Shown one piece after another: positions 27,607-60,438 of a stretch of 64,000 bases of DNA. The stretch's first letter is position 1; each line of letters starts with the position of its first letter. The DNA comes from a virus (taxonomy: Duplodnaviria; Heunggongvirae; Uroviricota; Caudoviricetes), in the IMG/VR virus record IMGVR_UViG_3300025913_000020; one strand, written 5' to 3'. Position numbers and translations under genes: made by a program. Below the pieces are notes generated by a model. It was not told the origin of the DNA. It ran no database searches and worked only from the letters and a program-made list of their open reading frames with translations.

Positions 27607-27929
27607 ACATTCGAATCGTAGCGTTGCACGAAGGTCCGGCTGACGGAATGAAGACCATGGCCTCGCACAGCACTGCCGTCCACGACGGCCAGGCTTACGT
27701 GTGGGACGGCGGAGAGGATCGGTCTCGTTTCGTCCATGCCATGACCCTGCTATCGCGGCAGCCTCGCGAGCTGGTTATCCAGGAGCAGGAGAAGATGCGA
27801 GATTTTATCAATCACCCCGAGCGTAATTGGAACGTTGACCCTCGATCAGAAAAAGGACCGCTTCACGGCATACCAGAGTGGCGTCTCAATTTATGGATTG
27901 CCCTGTTTCAGTACGGGGAAGTCGCATAG
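27603..27929 (+). CDS. Hypothetical protein (TAG-terminated)
   Basis: ATGA overlap. Confidence 0.6.
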   Translation: MNIRIVALHEGPADGMKTMASHSTAVHDGQAYVWDGGEDRSRFVHAMTLLSRQPRELVIQEQEKMRDFINHPERNWNVDPRSEKGPLHGIPEWRLNLWIALFQYGEVA

Positions 27930-27970
27930 CGGTGCCTGGCGCGTTTCATGTTCGCGCCAGGCACTGGCTA

Positions 27971-28306
27971 TTAAGCCGGTGTGGATGAAGTCTGGTGGGC
28001 TTTCAGATACTGTTCCTGCGCCCGCAGCTTCGAAGCCTTTCTCAGTTCCAGCATCTCGCGGGCTTCGTTTTGAAAACGCCAGATAGCGCCGTAGTCGAAG
28101 CCATAAGGTCCGGTGAAACGTTTGATGATCTCGGCGATCTTTTCGCGCTGAGACGCCCATTTGTCCCGACCTATCCCGCTGGCCGTGCTCCGGCGCACCA
28201 GCTTTAAGTCGTGGATGTGTTTGCTGATCTCGGCATAGCGGGTGCGCCACTCAGCGCGCCACGTGAGATATTGTTCCTTCGTTTCGAATGTCAGTGTTGT
28301 ATTCAT
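27971..28306 (-). CDS. Hypothetical protein, coupled to the Pth2-like gene
   Basis: ATG overlaps the TGA of the upstream minus-strand gene. Confidence 0.65.
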   Translation of the reverse strand: MNTTLTFETKEQYLTWRAEWRTRYAEISKHIHDLKLVRRSTASGIGRDKWASQREKIAEIIKRFTGPYGFDYGAIWRFQNEAREMLELRKASKLRAQEQYLKAHQTSSTPA

Positions 28307-28752
28307 GGTAGTAACTGGAACCGCCGTGTGATGGTTTGTATTTCGTGCTTCTTCGCTGGACCTATACCCAGGGCGGTAATGATGGGCTGGCCACCGAAGA
28401 AATTTTCACAGCCGGAATCCACGACCAGGAAGTGCGGGATGCCGAGGCGTTTGGCTTCGTCCACGGCCTGCATGATCCGATTGAGGTTGCCCTCAAGACA
28501 GACTTTGGTGCCGGGAGAATTGGGGTGCTCGACGGAATAGGCCGCAGCGAGCGAGGGATTTTGTTGAAGCGCCTGGATGTAAGCTCCCAGGTAAGCGTGA
28601 CCCGCTTGAGAAGCGGATTTGCCTGGAGTCATGCCCAGGTCTTTGCGAACGATAGCGTAGAGACGGAGAGTTTCGTCCTACGTGAATGGAGAGGCACATG
28701 GGGCACTTTCCCCAGTTGCCTTCGAAGTTTCTAAAACCTACAGTTCTGTCAT
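28303..28752 (-). CDS. pth2: Peptidyl-tRNA hydrolase 2 (Pth2)-family protein with two in-frame TAG codons in its N-terminus
   Basis: Frame from ATG 28752: MTEL*VLETSKATGESAPCASPFT*DETLRLYAIVRKDLGMTPGKSASQAGHA...KVCL...V.D.G...T.LGIGP...I..IT.RFQLL. TAGs at 28738-40 and 28678-80. The conserved first strand (YAIVRKDL) lies upstream of the track start 28632. Confidence 0.8.
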
Positions 28753-28761
28753 AGTGGCGAA

Positions 28762-28790
28762 AATGTAAACGCTTCCTTTTTCGCTGTCAA
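28762..28790 (-). promoter_or_regulatory. sigma70-like promoter of the Pth2-like gene
   Basis: TTGACA-N17-TACATT, 9 nt before ATG 28752 (near-leaderless). Confidence 0.7.
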
Positions 28791-28845
28791 ACGAAAAGTT
28801 GCACGGGCTGAGTAGGTAGGGAGAATCACTGTGGTATGAAATGAA

Positions 28846-28920
28846 TGGCGCTTCCGGCAGGGTTCGAACCTGCGACGCACCGATTTAGAGTCGGTCGTTC
28901 TGCCGCTGAACTACGGAAGC
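28846..28920 (-). tRNA. Amber suppressor tRNA (anticodon CUA)
   Basis: GCTTCCG-TA-GTTC-AGCGGCA-GAAC-G-ACCGA-CTCTAAA-TCGGT-GCGTC-GCAGG-TTCGAAC-CCTGC-CGGAAGC-G-CCA: all four stems fully paired, encoded CCA, G73; anticodon at 28886-28888. Confidence 0.95.
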
Positions 28921-28929
28921 ACGGACAAA

Positions 28930-28958
28930 AAACTAAAATGTTTACATTTATGAGTCAA
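28930..28958 (-). promoter_or_regulatory. sigma70-like promoter of the tRNA, with palindrome in the spacer
   Basis: TTGACT-N17-TAGTTT; AAATGTTTACATTT at 28936-28949. Confidence 0.65.
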
Positions 28959-28988
28959 GCCGGGAATAGCGAATTGATCGGGTCGCCG

Positions 28989-29339
28989 ATGAGCAAAGAG
29001 CTGATCGACGAAAAGATCAAGCGGTGCTATCGCCAGCGCCGTGTTGATAAAGTGCTCACCTGCGTCTCTGCCGTGGTGACCACGACGATTTTTATCCTGA
29101 TCTATCGCCACAACTACGTGATGCTGGCTTTCTTTCTCCTGGTGGGATGGCTGGTGAATCTGGCCGTGATGTTTTATTGCCAGAGAGTGTGGTCGCTGAG
29201 GATCAACCGGTGGGAAGCCCTGTGGAAGTGGTGCGACCTTCTGGAGCACGTCACTTTATTAGGTGAGTCAGGACCTTTTCGAGCAGGATCGGAAGGCATA
29301 ACAGCAGAAATCCTCCGACGACTGCCCACTTCGAGCTGA
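28989..29339 (+). CDS. Membrane protein (two TM segments)
   Basis: Hydrophobic VLTCVSAVVTTTIFILIY and VMLAFFLLVGWLVNLAVMFY; the track's N-terminal extension is tRNA antisense. Confidence 0.6.
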   Translation: MSKELIDEKIKRCYRQRRVDKVLTCVSAVVTTTIFILIYRHNYVMLAFFLLVGWLVNLAVMFYCQRVWSLRINRWEALWKWCDLLEHVTLLGESGPFRAGSEGITAEILRRLPTSS

Positions 29340-32983: not shown

Positions 32984-33295
32984 ATGCGCAGTCTTATTAA
33001 CAAAGGTGAAAGTGGTATCAACCTCGAAGCTCCTGGCCGAATGGACGTTGTCGAGCAAGTCTTACGTGCGGAGCCGTTCTTTAAGCCGAAGATGCGTGGT
33101 CCTGTACGTTGTCGCCGCACCAACCGGCGCGGAATTCGAAAACAGTACAGCGGGCTGACCGTGGAACTGGTCGGAAGGCTGGCTCGCGCTGGACTTGACG
33201 CTGTAACGATGCGCCGCGACGAATTGATTGCGGCAGCGTATCAGCTCTGCCAGCCAGTATCTGACGGCCAGGAAACGTTGTCAGTGAATGCCTGA
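32984..33295 (+). CDS. Hypothetical basic protein
   Basis: Follows a TTGAC...TTGTTTACG motif. Confidence 0.55.
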   Translation: MRSLINKGESGINLEAPGRMDVVEQVLRAEPFFKPKMRGPVRCRRTNRRGIRKQYSGLTVELVGRLARAGLDAVTMRRDELIAAAYQLCQPVSDGQETLSVNA

Positions 33296-33809
33296 GCAGG
33301 ATGCCAAAGACCCAATCCAGGAAGAATTAGAGCGCCAGATTCTTGAGGGCGCGCCGGAAATCTGTATCTGGATGATTGTCTTTGGGTGCCTGACCACCAT
33401 GGCGGAAATCCGCGAGGAATACGCTCTCAGTAGAATTGACCACTCCACTTTCTATCCTGCATTCAACAACGCGTTCGCCGAACTGATCAAGACGGCGGAG
33501 GCCGTGGACCGCTTTGGCGTTATTCTCGCGGTCGTGACCGAGAGCAACTACCGCAGGAGGATCAAGAAAGACCCCTACTACGTCATCGACGCCAAATTTT
33601 CCTCCTTTTTCTGGCGCTGGTACAACTGGTGGGCCGATCATCTTTTCGAACTGGACGATGTAGCTAGGCAAAGGCTCTTTCGGCTTGGCCACGAGAGATC
33701 GTCCACGCTGGCAGAGTATAAGCCTCCGGGCGACTGGATGCACTATCGGCGCACCATGCCAAAAGTGCTCAATTTTTCAGTCCCGCTAGGCGTGGCAAAA
33801 GCCGAATAG
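33288..33809 (+). CDS. Hypothetical protein (TAG-terminated; in frame with the next gene)
   Basis: 173-aa ORF. Confidence 0.65.
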   Translation: MPEQDAKDPIQEELERQILEGAPEICIWMIVFGCLTTMAEIREEYALSRIDHSTFYPAFNNAFAELIKTAEAVDRFGVILAVVTESNYRRRIKKDPYYVIDAKFSSFFWRWYNWWADHLFELDDVARQRLFRLGHERSSTLAEYKPPGDWMHYRRTMPKVLNFSVPLGVAKAE

Positions 33810-33879
33810 TGGGACCCTCACTTCCCTCCTTGGCGCGGCGTTTGTTATCGCTTCAGCGGGACTGTTCTATTATGGGTTG

Positions 33880-33886
33880 GTAGTTA
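33880..33886 (+). promoter_or_regulatory. GTAGTTA-N4-start motif
   Basis: GTAGTTA-tcac-GTG 33891. Confidence 0.55.
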
Positions 33887-33890
33887 TCAC

Positions 33891-36800
33891 GTGAACGAGC
33901 TGATCGAGCAAGAAGTCCTGGATGCCAAAGAGGTTTCCACGAATGAATCAGGACGCGTAGTGGTTGAATCCGACATCGACCTCCGCGACTCTCTCAGCCC
34001 ATCGTTCCATGACGAAGTGGCGCAGCTCCTTTCCAACCTGGGCGTCATCGTTGAATCCCAGTGGCGGCCAGCCGGGCTGGCGACAGAGAAAAGATTTTAC
34101 ACGGGGCCGGTGCTCGTCATCAAAGCTGTTACCGGCAACCAGGATGTCACCGGCCCGAAGCTTGCCGAAGCGGTACGATCGCTGATCCCTGATGCGCTGC
34201 GCGCCCAGACCCGAGTCTGGTGCCCCTTCCTTCACAAGGACGTGTGCAATGAGACACTGGTCTTCGATGTGGCGGTGGCGGGCGCACCGGCAGTCCTCTT
34301 TGAATTTGCGGATGAGGACGAGATGAAAACCATCTCGGAGCCAACCGACCCGAAGGAGCGCATCATGACTGTGCTCAATGGCCATGGTTTGCACATCGAG
34401 AGCTTTGTCACGACTCCATCCGATCCCGGTTGGGGCGATCTCGGTAATCCAGTCTTTGTCATCAAGACCAATCTTCAACCCACTGAAGCTCCCTGGACCT
34501 ACGATCCAGTGGCACAGTCCGGTCTAGTGGAATTCTGTGCGCGGGTAAAGCGCGACCTGGAGGAGATCACACACCAGGATGTGACGTTCGCCTCCAAGTT
34601 CGCCATGGAGAAGGGGGCGTGGAACATTACCTGGCTGACGGATGAGCACGGTAAAATGGAATCGACTGGCGATGCTGATCTCGACGCTGAGTTGGCTAAA
34701 GAGCTGACGAGTGACAAAGTGGATCGCGCTCTGATTGAGGATATTCTTTCCCGTTACGGTGTTCGTCTTTTGCCTGGCGACCGTCAAGGTACTGGCTTCG
34801 ACATACCCAATCAGCCCGACATCATTCCGAACACCTACCACATGTTCCGTGGGCAATGGAAACCCAAGGTCTTGTGGCACGAAGGGTCATCGCAGCTCGG
34901 TACCGATCTTCGTAACGACATCAGCGCGCAGTGTGGGGTGGCACCGAAGGACATTTTCTTCTACATCGACTTCGCGAGCGGTGAAGTCGAAGTGGCTGTG
35001 CCGCGCAAGAATCTCCAGACGGAATCAGAGCTGGACTCCGAAGCCGAAGACGCCAAAGAGGTTGGTGAAATTCCTGCCGACCGCGACGTGATGCCGTCTG
35101 GCGTTGAGGGATGGCAGAGCCGTCTTCAAAATGCTTACGACAGCTTTGAGGAGTTTGCTTCGTACTCGGACATCTACGGGTTGGCCGAACGCCTGGGATT
35201 CGAGACCGCTCAGGAAGCCTGGGAAGCCAATCCGATCATTCGTGGTTCCGTGAATCCTGGTGATTACGGTGTGGTTGAGAGTGCTGGTGATAAGCCACCG
35301 TGGTATGACCCCAACGCCGGTGCGCAGAAAGTCGCCCATGACGTGGAAGGCGCGCCAGTGAAGATCGGCCAAATAGTCCGCGTGACCTCGGTTGATGAAG
35401 CAGAGGAAGGAACTGACTGGGCTAAATTGGTGGGCCAGGAGGGCAAAGTAGTCCACCTGGAGTATTCGTGCGGATGCGGGCAGTCTTATCCAGAGGACCC
35501 GATGATCGGTGTGGAGTTTTCCGATGGCACCGTTCACGAGTTCTGGGCTGAGGAGCTTGGCACCGAGACCAATGAAGCCATCCGGGCCTACCACGCGTCG
35601 CCGAATAAGTTCAAGAAGTTCGATCTCAGTAAAGAGGGCGCGCACTTCGGGTCTCGCGAGCAGGCGTCCAACGTCAGGAAGCATGGGCTGAAAGAGCCGG
35701 TCGCTTACGATCTGGAGGTCAAGAATCCTTTGCGCCTGCATGACATCGGCGTCTGGAATAATTTCAACAACCTGCACTCTGTGCTCAGCGTGGGTGATCA
35801 CATCACGCCCGAGCAGGCTGACGCGGCCTGGGCCGCCTGGTTGCGGTCGGATCAGGAAGGGTGGGAGGCGCTGAAGGCCGCACTCGAACAGAATGGCTAC
35901 GACAGCATCGTCTATCAGAACGAGCAGGAAGGCCCCGGCGACTCCTACCTGGTATTCCGCGACGGCCAGATCAAACGGATCAAGGAGAACGACGAAGGTG
36001 ACTTCAAAGACCTATGGGTGGACTCGCCTAGTTTATCGCACACTTTCACGTTTGTCTTTGATTTCGGTGCCGGAGAAGGCACTCAAGAGTGGGTCTGGAC
36101 CGTTCCCATCGAGATGATGCCGCCTGTCGGCCCGGATGGAGATTTAGAGCCTGTCTTGGATTTTGTTAGAGAGTATGCCCGCAAGCACATGCCAGATACT
36201 CCGCCAGACGACTGGGATTTTCTTGTTGATATTAAACCAGCCAATCCTGAGAACTTGGCCGAGCTGTTGCGTGAGGACCTGAACGATGACGTGGTAGCGG
36301 CTGCGAAAGAGGCATGTAAAGAGCCAAGCGACGAACAGAAGGAAGCTGGCAATTACCAAAAGGGTCACATTGTGATCCATGGTCTTGACATCTCCATCGA
36401 GAATTGCAAAGGGTCCATGCGCCGGGGCAAGGACAAGGGCGGCAAGGAGTGGGAGGTTAAATTACCCGCGCACTACGGCTACATCAAAGGCACCGAAGGC
36501 AAGGATAAGGATCACATCGACGTGTTCATCGGCGAGAAGCCGGAGAGCGAGAAGGTGTTCGTGGTCAATCAGAACAAGCTCGATGGTGGTTTTGATGAGC
36601 ACAAAGTCCTGCTTGGATTTGAGGAGCGCGCCGACGCCATCCAGCATTACGACGACGCCTACACAGGCGGCCTGGGTCCCAAGCTGCGCGACTCGGTCGT
36701 GTCCACCACGATGGAAAAATTCAAAGCGTGGCTCCAGGATGGCGAGCACAAGAAGCCGTTCGAGGAAGTCGAGCTGAAGGAATCCCTCCAGGAGCGGGTC

Positions 36801-38042
36801 AACATCAGCGACGTATTCGCCTACCTGGAATCCATTCGATCCAAACTCGATGAAGCCCGCGACGCGGCGGCTGCTCGTGAACAGGACGAGGACAAGAAGC
36901 GGGACATTCTCAAGGGTCACGGCATCTACAAGGGAAGTTGCGGCCACCGCATCCAGGGCTGCCGGTGCCCGCAGGTCTGCGCCGTGATCGAGGTCCAGGC
37001 TCCGTGCCGCGAGTGTGCAAGTAAAGCCCCCATCCACGAATTCGTAAACAAGTGGCGGTCTCAACGCATTCAGGAGGCAACCGATCCTGAACACATGTTC
37101 CAGTCTCGTGAATATGACTGTGGTCCAACGTGCATCAAAATGGTGGCCAACGCTCTCGGGGTTGGCCGACAGCTCACTCTCGACGACATCATCCAGGTCT
37201 GCGGCAGCGACCCAACGACCGGGACCGACGATAAGAAGATGGAGAAGGGCTTGGCCGCCGCAGGCGTACCGTTCCAGGTAGGCGGGGCGCGCACTGCCGA
37301 AGACCTGGCGACCTCGCTCAATGCGGGCAACCTGATCATCCTGCGAACGCTAACGCGTGGCATCAAGCATTGGATCGTGCTCTACCGTTTCGACGGACAA
37401 CGCTTTCTCGCACAAGACCCTTGGCTTGGTCCACTCAGCTACACGCCCGAGGAAGTCGTCAACATCTGGAAGCCTCGCGACTATTTCTACTTTGAGGTTC
37501 CGCGCACGATGGAGCAGCGCGTGGACAGCTATCAGATTGCGACCTACGCCATGCTGAAAGCCCTGGGCGAGTCCCAGGAGGGCGGCAACCTGCTGTTCGT
37601 GAACGCGACGGGCGAAGTCATGCCTGCCCTGGAGAAAGCCATCGTGGATGTTTTCCCACGCTATGCCGATTGGGTGGTGGGCTACGCGAAGTCCGCGATG
37701 GACCCGCAGCTCTCAGTCGTGGTGCTCGATGGCCACGAGGTCGTCGGATTTTATCTCATCGGTCGGCGTGATGTGATTGACGGCACCGCTGGCATGGAGC
37801 TGATGGAAGACCTGACGCCGTACGCTCAGAAGCGTGGCGTTGAAGGCGTCGCTCTCGGGGTCGTGGGCAGCGCACGTGGACGCGGCATCGGCAACCGGCT
37901 CAAGGATTATCCCAAGCACCTGGGCGTGGAATACGTCTGGGGACTTCAGATGAGGAAGCTCGGCAACTTGAAGGACTGGCTCAAGCGCCGACGCCTGGTT
38001 GCGCAGAGCGCTGAGTGCTTCGCCACGCTCGAAGATTTGTAA
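33891..38042 (+). CDS. Polyvalent multi-domain protein: CarS-like SH3, ART-like, inorganic-pyrophosphatase-like, C39 peptidase, GNAT
   Basis: HDVEGAPVKIG...YPEDPMI...F.AEEL; AYHAS...HFGS...KNP...GYDSIVY.N; EAGNYQKGH...ISIEN.KGS.R.G...HYGYI.GT.G.D.DH.DVF; QSREYDCGPTC...HW...DP; RGRGIG. Confidence 0.8.
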   Translation: MNELIEQEVLDAKEVSTNESGRVVVESDIDLRDSLSPSFHDEVAQLLSNLGVIVESQWRPAGLATEKRFYTGPVLVIKAVTGNQDVTGPKLAEAVRSLIPDALRAQTRVWCPFLHKDVCNETLVFDVAVAGAPAVLFEFADEDEMKTISEPTDPKERIMTVLNGHGLHIESFVTTPSDPGWGDLGNPVFVIKTNLQPTEAPWTYDPVAQSGLVEFCARVKRDLEEITHQDVTFASKFAMEKGAWNITWLTDEHGKMESTGDADLDAELAKELTSDKVDRALIEDILSRYGVRLLPGDRQGTGFDIPNQPDIIPNTYHMFRGQWKPKVLWHEGSSQLGTDLRNDISAQCGVAPKDIFFYIDFASGEVEVAVPRKNLQTESELDSEAEDAKEVGEIPADRDVMPSGVEGWQSRLQNAYDSFEEFASYSDIYGLAERLGFETAQEAWEANPIIRGSVNPGDYGVVESAGDKPPWYDPNAGAQKVAHDVEGAPVKIGQIVRVTSVDEAEEGTDWAKLVGQEGKVVHLEYSCGCGQSYPEDPMIGVEFSDGTVHEFWAEELGTETNEAIRAYHASPNKFKKFDLSKEGAHFGSREQASNVRKHGLKEPVAYDLEVKNPLRLHDIGVWNNFNNLHSVLSVGDHITPEQADAAWAAWLRSDQEGWEALKAALEQNGYDSIVYQNEQEGPGDSYLVFRDGQIKRIKENDEGDFKDLWVDSPSLSHTFTFVFDFGAGEGTQEWVWTVPIEMMPPVGPDGDLEPVLDFVREYARKHMPDTPPDDWDFLVDIKPANPENLAELLREDLNDDVVAAAKEACKEPSDEQKEAGNYQKGHIVIHGLDISIENCKGSMRRGKDKGGKEWEVKLPAHYGYIKGTEGKDKDHIDVFIGEKPESEKVFVVNQNKLDGGFDEHKVLLGFEERADAIQHYDDAYTGGLGPKLRDSVVSTTMEKFKAWLQDGEHKKPFEEVELKESLQERVNISDVFAYLESIRSKLDEARDAAAAREQDEDKKRDILKGHGIYKGSCGHRIQGCRCPQVCAVIEVQAPCRECASKAPIHEFVNKWRSQRIQEATDPEHMFQSREYDCGPTCIKMVANALGVGRQLTLDDIIQVCGSDPTTGTDDKKMEKGLAAAGVPFQVGGARTAEDLATSLNAGNLIILRTLTRGIKHWIVLYRFDGQRFLAQDPWLGPLSYTPEEVVNIWKPRDYFYFEVPRTMEQRVDSYQIATYAMLKALGESQEGGNLLFVNATGEVMPALEKAIVDVFPRYADWVVGYAKSAMDPQLSVVVLDGHEVVGFYLIGRRDVIDGTAGMELMEDLTPYAQKRGVEGVALGVVGSARGRGIGNRLKDYPKHLGVEYVWGLQMRKLGNLKDWLKRRRLVAQSAECFATLEDL

Positions 38043-59652: not shown

Positions 59653-60060
59653 ATGGGCGGCACTATTACACCACCATCCGACCGGCAGGTCATCAGCGAT
59701 CTGCGCCAGGAGAACGCAGCGCTTCGCAGACTCCTGGAGAAGCTGGCACGCGCACGCACCGTGAAGGACTTGAAGGCGGCGCAGAAGGAAGCCCAGGAGG
59801 AGATCAACGGCCCTGTCCGCCAGTCCAAGTCCATCTACTGGAATCGTTGGGACACGGGGTACGAACCTCCCCGCCTGCGTGAAGTGCGCGGCAAGATGCG
59901 GGTCGTTCCTCAGTATGGCGGCGACGGCCTTTACTTTTTAATGGAGGGCAGCAAAAAGGTCAACGAGTGCTCGATGACAGCCCAGGACGCCCGGCAGCGT
60001 AATGCCGACCGAACGAAGAATAACATCAAGGCGCTGTGGCACTGGTCAGGCAGGAAATAG
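59653..60060 (+). CDS. Hypothetical protein (TAG-terminated; in frame with the next gene)
   Basis: Follows the promoter. Confidence 0.6.
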   Translation: MGGTITPPSDRQVISDLRQENAALRRLLEKLARARTVKDLKAAQKEAQEEINGPVRQSKSIYWNRWDTGYEPPRLREVRGKMRVVPQYGGDGLYFLMEGSKKVNECSMTAQDARQRNADRTKNNIKALWHWSGRK

Positions 60061-60072
60061 TTCTCTCGGGAT

Positions 60073-60438
60073 ATGGCAAAATCATCTTTCAATATCTCGA
60101 CCGGTGGCCTCATCGTAATCTTTGCAGTCGGCTACATGGGTTACCAGCTTCTCCACAAAGCTATTGGCAGCGACGACAGTGACAGCGAGGAGACCAAGCC
60201 GAAAGTCACCACCCGTGCCGCCGCTCCTGACGATGATGTCACCGTCACGAAGAAAGTGATGAGCGACAGCGAACATGACACGGTCGTTGTGCGCTCGAAG
60301 GGCAACGAGTACGTCCGCATCGGCGAGATGGTTTTCTGCTGGCACAGCAACGTGCTCACCGGTGTCTTCACCAAGAATGGCCTCGTGCCCGGCTGGCAAA
60401 CCATGACCAATCAACCACCACCATCACATGCTCCGTAA
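60073..60438 (+). CDS. Membrane-anchored hypothetical protein
   Basis: N-terminal TM GGLIVIFAVGYMGY. Confidence 0.6.
   Translation: MAKSSFNISTGGLIVIFAVGYMGYQLLHKAIGSDDSDSEETKPKVTTRAAAPDDDVTVTKKVMSDSEHDTVVVRSKGNEYVRIGEMVFCWHSNVLTGVFTKNGLVPGWQTMTNQPPPSHAP

Follow-up and report, generated by a model that had tools for sequence, protein, structure and literature searches.

How is a complete enzyme made from a gene whose reading frame meets two stop codons before its conserved domain begins? The question is raised by a 1.1-kb cassette (27857-28958, minus strand) in a 64-kb window, the whole stretch of DNA analysed here, which comes from the ~245-kb genome of a giant soil phage (IMG/VR record IMGVR_UViG_3300025913_000020). 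The cassette runs from a promoter through a tRNA gene with anticodon CUA, a second promoter, a leader bearing TAG codons, a peptidyl-tRNA hydrolase (PTH2) domain and a partner gene to a hairpin (Table 1). A first-pass annotation of the window had described the order promoter, tRNA(CUA), promoter, ATG, two TAGs and complete Pth2, and all of its coordinates and details were borne out. It had also proposed that the full-length enzyme needs two amber readthroughs. Conservation of the stops and covariation between stop type and tRNA anticodon, over ~90 loci and two cultured phages, support such a gate. We consider it likely that full-length Pth2 depends on readthrough of both UAG codons by the phage's own tRNA(CUA), readthrough being, we infer, the main route to the enzyme.

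The complete Pth2 fold lies behind two TAG codons

The leader frame reads ATG ACA GAA CTG, a TAG at codon 5 (TAG1), 19 sense codons and a second TAG at codon 25 (TAG2). After TAG2 it continues as GAC GAA ACT CTC CGT CTC TAC GCT ATC GTT CGC AAA GAC CTG GGC ATG, the last codon being the internal Met41 (28632-28630). Walking through this frame codon by codon agreed with the first-pass annotation: no in-frame ATG, GTG or TTG occurs between TAG2 and the first beta-strand of the window gene. With TAG read as sense, the frame is open down to its TGA and encodes a product of 149 aa, while under genetic code 11 the open reading frame (ORF) 28303-28632 starts at Met41 and encodes 109 aa. An exact-sequence look-up of this 109-aa form gave no match.

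The 149-aa product matched the Pfam PTH2 profile (PF01981) at 4.2e-21 and 75.7 bits (cut-off 23), residues 30-148 covering profile positions 2-115 of 115. The match starts five codons past TAG2, and a product containing it needs both TAGs to be read through. In the AlphaFold 2 (AF2) model of the 149-aa product, the mean predicted local distance difference test (pLDDT) score was 85; residues 1-28 were disordered, with pLDDT 51-55 over residues 1-20, and core strand 1 was formed by residues 29-36, upstream of Met41. A form started at Met41 would therefore lack a core strand, and both the Pfam match and the model uphold the earlier remark that the 28632 start deletes the first strand. Foldseek comparison with archaeal Pth2 and human Bit1 structures (1wn2, 2zv3, 1q7s, 1xty) gave target-normalised template-modelling scores of 0.85-0.90. 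The model is that of a Pth2 alpha/beta fold, with strand 1 placed within the core sheet.

K18 and D86 of S. solfataricus Pth2 have K45 and D112 as their aligned counterparts, and these two residues are invariant in 28 homologues. We take K18 and D86 (S. solfataricus numbering) to be the catalytic Lys and Asp of Pth2; the roles of these residues are reportedly dealt with by Fromant et al. in 2005. The domain is under purifying selection, with 24 invariant columns among the 28 sequences, and no stop codon lies within it. Profile, predicted fold and catalytic residues all point to a Pth2-type peptidyl-tRNA hydrolase.

The upstream stops are conserved across related loci

To follow the stops in homologues, we retrieved 80 metagenome, 16 viral-contig and 12 genome loci and walked the frame upstream in each; alignment-based scans found the loci, a single-protein scan of viral contigs having returned no match. 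The related loci comprise 89 distinct ones, with 40-75% identity. Seventy of these 89 are strictly gated, meaning that they have an in-frame stop and no ATG, GTG or TTG between that stop and strand 1. A further ~16 offer no possible "start" other than a TTG Leu codon within strand 1. Just two loci (L044 and L081) are ungated with ordinary starts, and one further contig was too short to judge. In-frame stops upstream of the domain are thus conserved in ~87 of the 89 loci, which bears out what the first-pass annotation had anticipated for homologues.

The position of the stops is also conserved. In 60 of the 70 strictly gated loci, 15-19 codons separate the proximal stop from the Met41 equivalent downstream. 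The first stop follows the ATG by 2-12 codons; one stop is present in half of the loci and two in the other half. Leader and domain share one frame in all loci. In a relative represented by L001-L003 (76% identical), the tRNA(CUA) at this place differs in sequence and the same two TAGs are present, the leader reading ATG ACT GAA ACA TAG, 15 codons, then TAG GAC CAA ACT CTC. In databases, almost all of the closest homologues are annotated as proteins of 105-109 aa that begin at this internal Met, which is the signature of a common upstream stop.

The gated module was also seen on contigs binned as Verrucomicrobiota metagenome-assembled genomes and on a 12-kb Loktanella sp. DJP18 contig (L147-L149, L153). 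Proteobacterial chromosomes and Pseudomonas megaplasmids carry an ungated Pth2 with an N-terminal extension, and the more distant Pth2 genes of cultured phages (phiCbK, phiM12, XacN1, RsoM2USA, Gurke) are ordinary ungated coding sequences (CDSs).

Stop type and tRNA anticodon vary together

The tRNA(CUA) of the window has a canonical cloverleaf, a 7-nt anticodon loop (CUCUAAA), a G1-C72 pair, discriminator G73 and an encoded CCA. Its anticodon is complementary to a stop codon, as in a nonsense suppressor, and the molecule is of the elongator type, without initiator features. The idea that TAG serves as a start codon read by an initiator tRNA was rejected, since G1-C72 is present and the three anticodon-stem G-C pairs are absent. 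The tRNA is presumably expressed, charged and active at UAG, for which the covariation of stop and anticodon speaks indirectly. Next to pth2 homologues we counted 58 distinct CUA or UUA tRNA sequences, nearly all of which include the CCA.

The leader stops co-occur with suppressor tRNAs, as expected from the first-pass proposal: upstream sequence of at least 700 nt was available for 50 gated loci, and in 39 of them a suppressor tRNA is encoded on the same strand no more than 700 nt away. The identity of the stop follows the anticodon. Many loci pair TAG with CUA, whereas L094 has TAA in its leader and a tRNA(UUA) upstream. Two cultured jumbo phages extend the pattern. In Sinorhizobium phage Phosso, a Shine-Dalgarno (SD) sequence precedes ATG AAG TAT TAG GTT in frame with Pth2 (L101:1442-1935, PV764938.1), and the phage has two tRNA(CUA) genes. 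In Agrobacterium phage Atu_ph07, an SD sequence precedes ATG ATT GGC GAA CAC TTT TGA in frame with Pth2 (L100:1427-1875, MF403008.1); the sole suppressor of this phage is a tRNA(UCA) (PMC6102473), giving the pair TGA/UCA. The deposited Pth2 CDSs of both phages begin at an internal Met and omit strand 1. More generally, about half of the database homologues, these two records included, begin at an internal Met or Val. The suppressors of Phosso and Atu_ph07 showed no clear derivation from any particular tRNA of the same phage.

In eleven loci (L010, L015, L020, L023, L025, L030, L055, L057, L084, L086 and L087), the leader ORF itself contains the tRNA(CUA) gene (e.g. L084:3920-4125). The order there is a leaderless promoter, ATG, 3-11 codons, ACG TAG GTT, the tRNA in frame and stop-free, usually a second ACG TAG GTT, and Pth2; L010 and L023 are without the second TAG. 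A single transcript would here serve as tRNA precursor and as mRNA, so that processing and translation may compete for it.

Gating stops have a distinct context and an upstream start

We compared 110 distinct gating TAGs with 42 terminator TAGs of ORFs of at least 200 aa from the same loci. The preceding codon was ACG or ACA at 89/110 gating TAGs and at 0/42 terminators, and the +4 base was G at 97/110 and 9/42, respectively; the next codon was GTT or GTA at 84 of the 110 gating TAGs (terminators were not counted for this position). Gating stops thus share the context ACR-TAG-GTW(-TCN), which the terminator TAGs of neighbouring genes do not have. In the window, TAG2 stands in ACG TAG GAC (28676-28683, minus strand) and TAG1 in CTG TAG GTT; ACRTAGGW is found nowhere else in the 64 kb. 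Amino-acid conservation alone would not confine the flanking codons to ACG/ACA and GTT/GTA. The mRNA context itself therefore seems to be under selection, in the simplest case because it favours efficient suppression, and ACR-UAG-GUW is a candidate natural high-readthrough context. The possibility that the TAG motif is a -10 box was rejected, as no -35 box was found at the right spacing. Leader RNA structure gave z = -1.98, and L084 does not share the hairpin that covers TAG2.

Translation appears to start upstream of the stops. The -10 box of the pth2 promoter ends 9 nt short of ATG 28752, so that the pth2 mRNA would be leaderless or nearly so, and a sigma-70-like promoter ends 4-11 nt upstream of the leader ATG in 41/76 related loci. 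The leader ATG is on this evidence the true start, and internal initiation after the stop is unlikely because the mRNA would begin at or beside the leader AUG.

A model for suppressor-gated pth2 expression

In the proposed mechanism, tRNA(CUA) would be transcribed from its own promoter and pth2 from the second one, as a leaderless or near-leaderless mRNA starting at AUG 28752. A ribosome on this mRNA would encounter a UAG at codon 5 and then another at codon 25. Should release factor 1 (RF1) win at the first UAG, only the peptide MTEL would be released; should the tRNA decode both, the product would be a 149-aa Pth2-type hydrolase consisting of a 25-residue disordered extension and the complete fold. 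Pth2 output would then scale roughly with the square of suppression efficiency, and since both the gated mRNA and an active suppressor would be needed, the cassette would behave as an AND gate. Stops placed in a disordered leader would allow any inserted residue to be tolerated, and their early position would mean less wasted synthesis. The gate could provide feed-forward protection, act as a timer or sense RF1, or, as the first-pass annotation proposed, form a sensor or feedback loop whose output would track the ratio of suppressor to RF1; the purpose that we favour is that it would tie the clearing of peptidyl-tRNA to the moment and degree of stop-codon suppression.

Several observations weigh against this model. 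TAG still ends ~16-19% of genes, so that a strong suppressor would be costly and a weak one, acting across two UAGs, would give little Pth2. Eleven of the 50 loci have no tRNA within 700 nt, although in loci without a visible cognate tRNA it may lie elsewhere in the genome. L027 has a TAG leader, and the only suppressor-like tRNA in its 8.4 kb is a downstream tRNA(UCA) (L027:5415-5488). The nature of the inserted residue is not signalled consistently either: the only genuine sense codon in the place of a gating TAG is CAG (Gln), in L041/L043, four close relatives of which have TAG, while the anticodon loop CUCUAAA is Trp-, Lys- or Tyr-like rather than Gln-like. Another candidate piece of evidence for Gln, P0027, was rejected, as the gene caller had used TAG=Q and the DNA itself carries TAGs. 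Some initiation may occur downstream of TAG2. Finally, the enzyme departs from the canonical D-A-G-x-T motif after the catalytic Asp: archaeal Pth2 has DAGxTQ, whereas the clade has an invariant DSGC followed by x-N-F, which suggests that its substrate may differ from that of classical Pth2, and the substrate or chemistry of the clade enzyme may be modified.

Alternative explanations

We regard as doubtful a more elaborate form of suppressor gating, in which the cassette is a self-contained homeostat of suppression and the early UAGs in ACR-UAG-GUW gauge the suppressor against RF1. The UAGs might, just as tentatively, determine how much of a modified Pth2 and of its partner is made, and these two would act back on the suppressor or on by-products of suppression. 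Where the tRNA lies in the leader, a ribosome passing the first UAG might overrun the tRNA precursor, the transcript becoming either mRNA or tRNA in a direct feedback on suppressor level; our confidence in this variant is similarly low.

It is unlikely that Pth2 is made without the tRNA at all, the leader being a regulatory mini-ORF (MTEL-stop), the domain being reached by reinitiation, by non-canonical initiation after TAG2 or from Met41, and the linkage to the tRNA reflecting co-inheritance. Regulation by very short ORFs is known, GTG directly follows the TAG in a few loci (L039), and gene callers often pick a Val GTG or Met41 as the start. Yet GTT and GTA, which predominate after the gating TAG, are non-start codons, and no conserved start or SD sequence follows TAG2. 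Leaderless promoters put the 5' end at the upstream AUG, and a Met41 start removes core strand 1. Reinitiation does not predict that the stop (TAG, TAA or TGA) should covary with the anticodon.

Genome-wide TAG recoding (code 15-like), with pth2 as one of many genes having an in-frame TAG, is quite improbable. Long genes of the window are intact under code 11, whose ORFs make up 92% of it. Nine ORFs were lengthened by reading TAG as sense, and none of the nine (0/9) had a PHROG match spanning the TAG; PHROG domains (helicase, baseplate, methyltransferase) do not cross a TAG, and the helicase and baseplate profiles begin past ordinary starts. TAG terminates 16/98 window ORFs and 42/226 long ORFs in related loci. 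The gating TAGs, at conserved positions and in a unique context, are unlike scattered recoding, and the records of Atu_ph07 and Phosso carry normal code-11 annotation. The many TAG-interrupted genes, fragmentation under code 11 and lack of TAG terminators that mark code-15 phages were thus not seen in the 64-kb window, and by its sequence the phage appears otherwise standard-code. In favour of recoding, the phage has its own tRNA(CUA) gene, recoding is common among phages equipped with suppressor tRNAs (10.1101/2021.08.26.457843), the window covers 64 kb of a ~245-kb genome and it contains a few same-frame TAG junctions. These are two plus-strand ORF pairs separated by a TAG, at 59653-60438 (135 aa + 121 aa) and 33288-38042 (173 aa + 1383 aa). 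In the first pair, a codon-usage scan gave a weak coding signal on either side of the TAG; the pairs may be neighbouring genes of the ordinary kind or additional targets of readthrough.

That pth2 is a decaying pseudogene, the usual reading of two stops in so small a gene, or that the TAGs are assembly errors, as the first-pass annotation had allowed, is extremely improbable, since the stops recur at the same positions in ~87 independent loci in front of a stop-free domain under clear purifying selection, the recurrence of the layout in independent assemblies argues against chance or assembly error, and contigs from other studies cover the region with no change at TAG2 among the differences listed.

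The partner gene and other features of the cassette

The ATG of the partner gene overlaps the pth2 stop (ATGA). In tblastn searches, the 111-aa partner was found downstream of pth2 in ~70 loci, with the N-terminal motif F..K..YL.WR..WK..Y..LS..IR. The protein had no Pfam or PHROG match, and an Atlas search with it returned generic helical look-alikes only. The ATGA probably couples the two genes in translation, and the partner would hence depend on the same readthrough, ribosomes that have completed Pth2 probably being carried on into the partner, which looks like a third part of the module.

The promoter of the tRNA gene fell below threshold in a consensus promoter scan; a TTGAC-N17-TAG..T layout likewise lies upstream of the tRNA in L001. 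The hairpin past the partner gene is a possible end of the cassette. On the other strand, a divergent membrane-protein gene (28950-29339, plus) starts at ~28950, its start codon overlapping the -35 box of the tRNA promoter. The minus-strand ORF 28911-29249, opposite this gene, looks non-coding.

Table 1. Features of the tRNA-pth2 cassette, in window coordinates.
Feature	Position	Strand	Details and evidence
Suppressor tRNA promoter	28930-28958	-	TTGACT 28958-28953, 17 nt, TAGTTT 28935-28930; end 9 nt from tRNA 5' end; read from sequence
Amber-suppressor tRNA, anticodon CUA	28846-28920	-	ARAGORN; Rfam tRNA RF00005, 65.9 bits (cut-off 29)
pth2 promoter	28762-28790	-	TTGACA 28790-28785, 17 nt, TACATT 28767-28762; 10/12 consensus matches
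Gated leader	28678-28752	-	ATG 28752-28750; TAG1 28740-28738; TAG2 28680-28678
PTH2 domain, residues 26-149, and stop	28303-28677	-	TGA 28305-28303; Pfam PF01981, AF2, Foldseek
Gene for 111-aa helical partner	27971-28306	-	ORF; tblastn conservation
Terminator-like hairpin and T run	27857-27869	-	Consensus match only; ~100 nt past partner gene

Discussion

The arrangement has partial precedents. The prfB gene for RF2 carries an early in-frame UGA that is escaped by a +1 frameshift, and its product reads that very stop, closing a feedback loop. As in prfB, an early in-frame stop in a translation-factor gene would tie expression to the efficiency of termination at that stop; here, however, the escape would be in frame and by a dedicated tRNA, the single frame shared by leader and domain being unlike a prfB-type frameshift. 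The bar minigenes of phage lambda are free-standing and toxic to Pth-deficient hosts; drop-off is frequent with very short nascent chains. The 2-12-codon ORF ending in a stop recalls them in its link to peptidyl-tRNA hydrolase biology, a likeness by analogy only, and unlike them it is in frame with, and fused to, the hydrolase gene.

Phages that recode stop codons with their own suppressor tRNAs use code 15 (TAG to Gln) or code 4 (TGA to Trp) (Borges et al., 10.1101/2021.08.26.457843; Peters et al., PMC9523058), and suppression has been proposed as a post-transcriptional control of phage genes (10.1101/2021.08.26.457843). As in those phages, a phage suppressor tRNA would make in-frame stops sense in a standard-code host. 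The present case differs in that, apart from the gate, the genome uses the standard code, TAG terminators included. The in-frame stops, moreover, are found only within the first 3-25 codons of one gene family, where they occupy conserved positions in a special context and usually lie beside the tRNA gene. The gated gene is a translation-quality enzyme and not a lysis or structural gene; the words "hydrolase" and "peptidyl" are absent from the Borges et al. preprint (10.1101/2021.08.26.457843). A closer parallel is synthetic, an AND gate built from the supD amber-suppressor tRNA and a T7 RNA polymerase gene with two ambers (Anderson, Voigt and Arkin 2007, PMC1964800). In both, two promoters drive a suppressor tRNA and a two-amber mRNA, and the output needs both; the phage cassette is natural and evolutionarily conserved, with a Pth2-type enzyme as its output. 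Neither the recoded phages nor the supD gate has a cis-linked, conserved tRNA-target pair.

PTH2 genes have been noted in jumbo phages (Iyer et al. 2021, PMC7824862), but the word "suppressor" is absent from that article, whose treatment of PTH2 includes no in-frame stops. We found no published description of a stop-gated pth2 in the literature searched, and within that scope the first-pass view that the arrangement is undescribed holds.

One practical consequence is that gene callers systematically truncate gated pth2 genes. The context ACR-UAG-GUW is of practical interest for genetic-code expansion, and two cultured phage-host pairs carry the arrangement, which makes it directly testable. 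To our knowledge, the suppressor tRNAs of otherwise standard-code phages have had no known target so far. A gated pth2 would give these orphan tRNAs a conserved target adjoining the tRNA gene, and the arrangement, the natural counterpart of the engineered suppressor and two-amber switch, looks like a natural translational switch.

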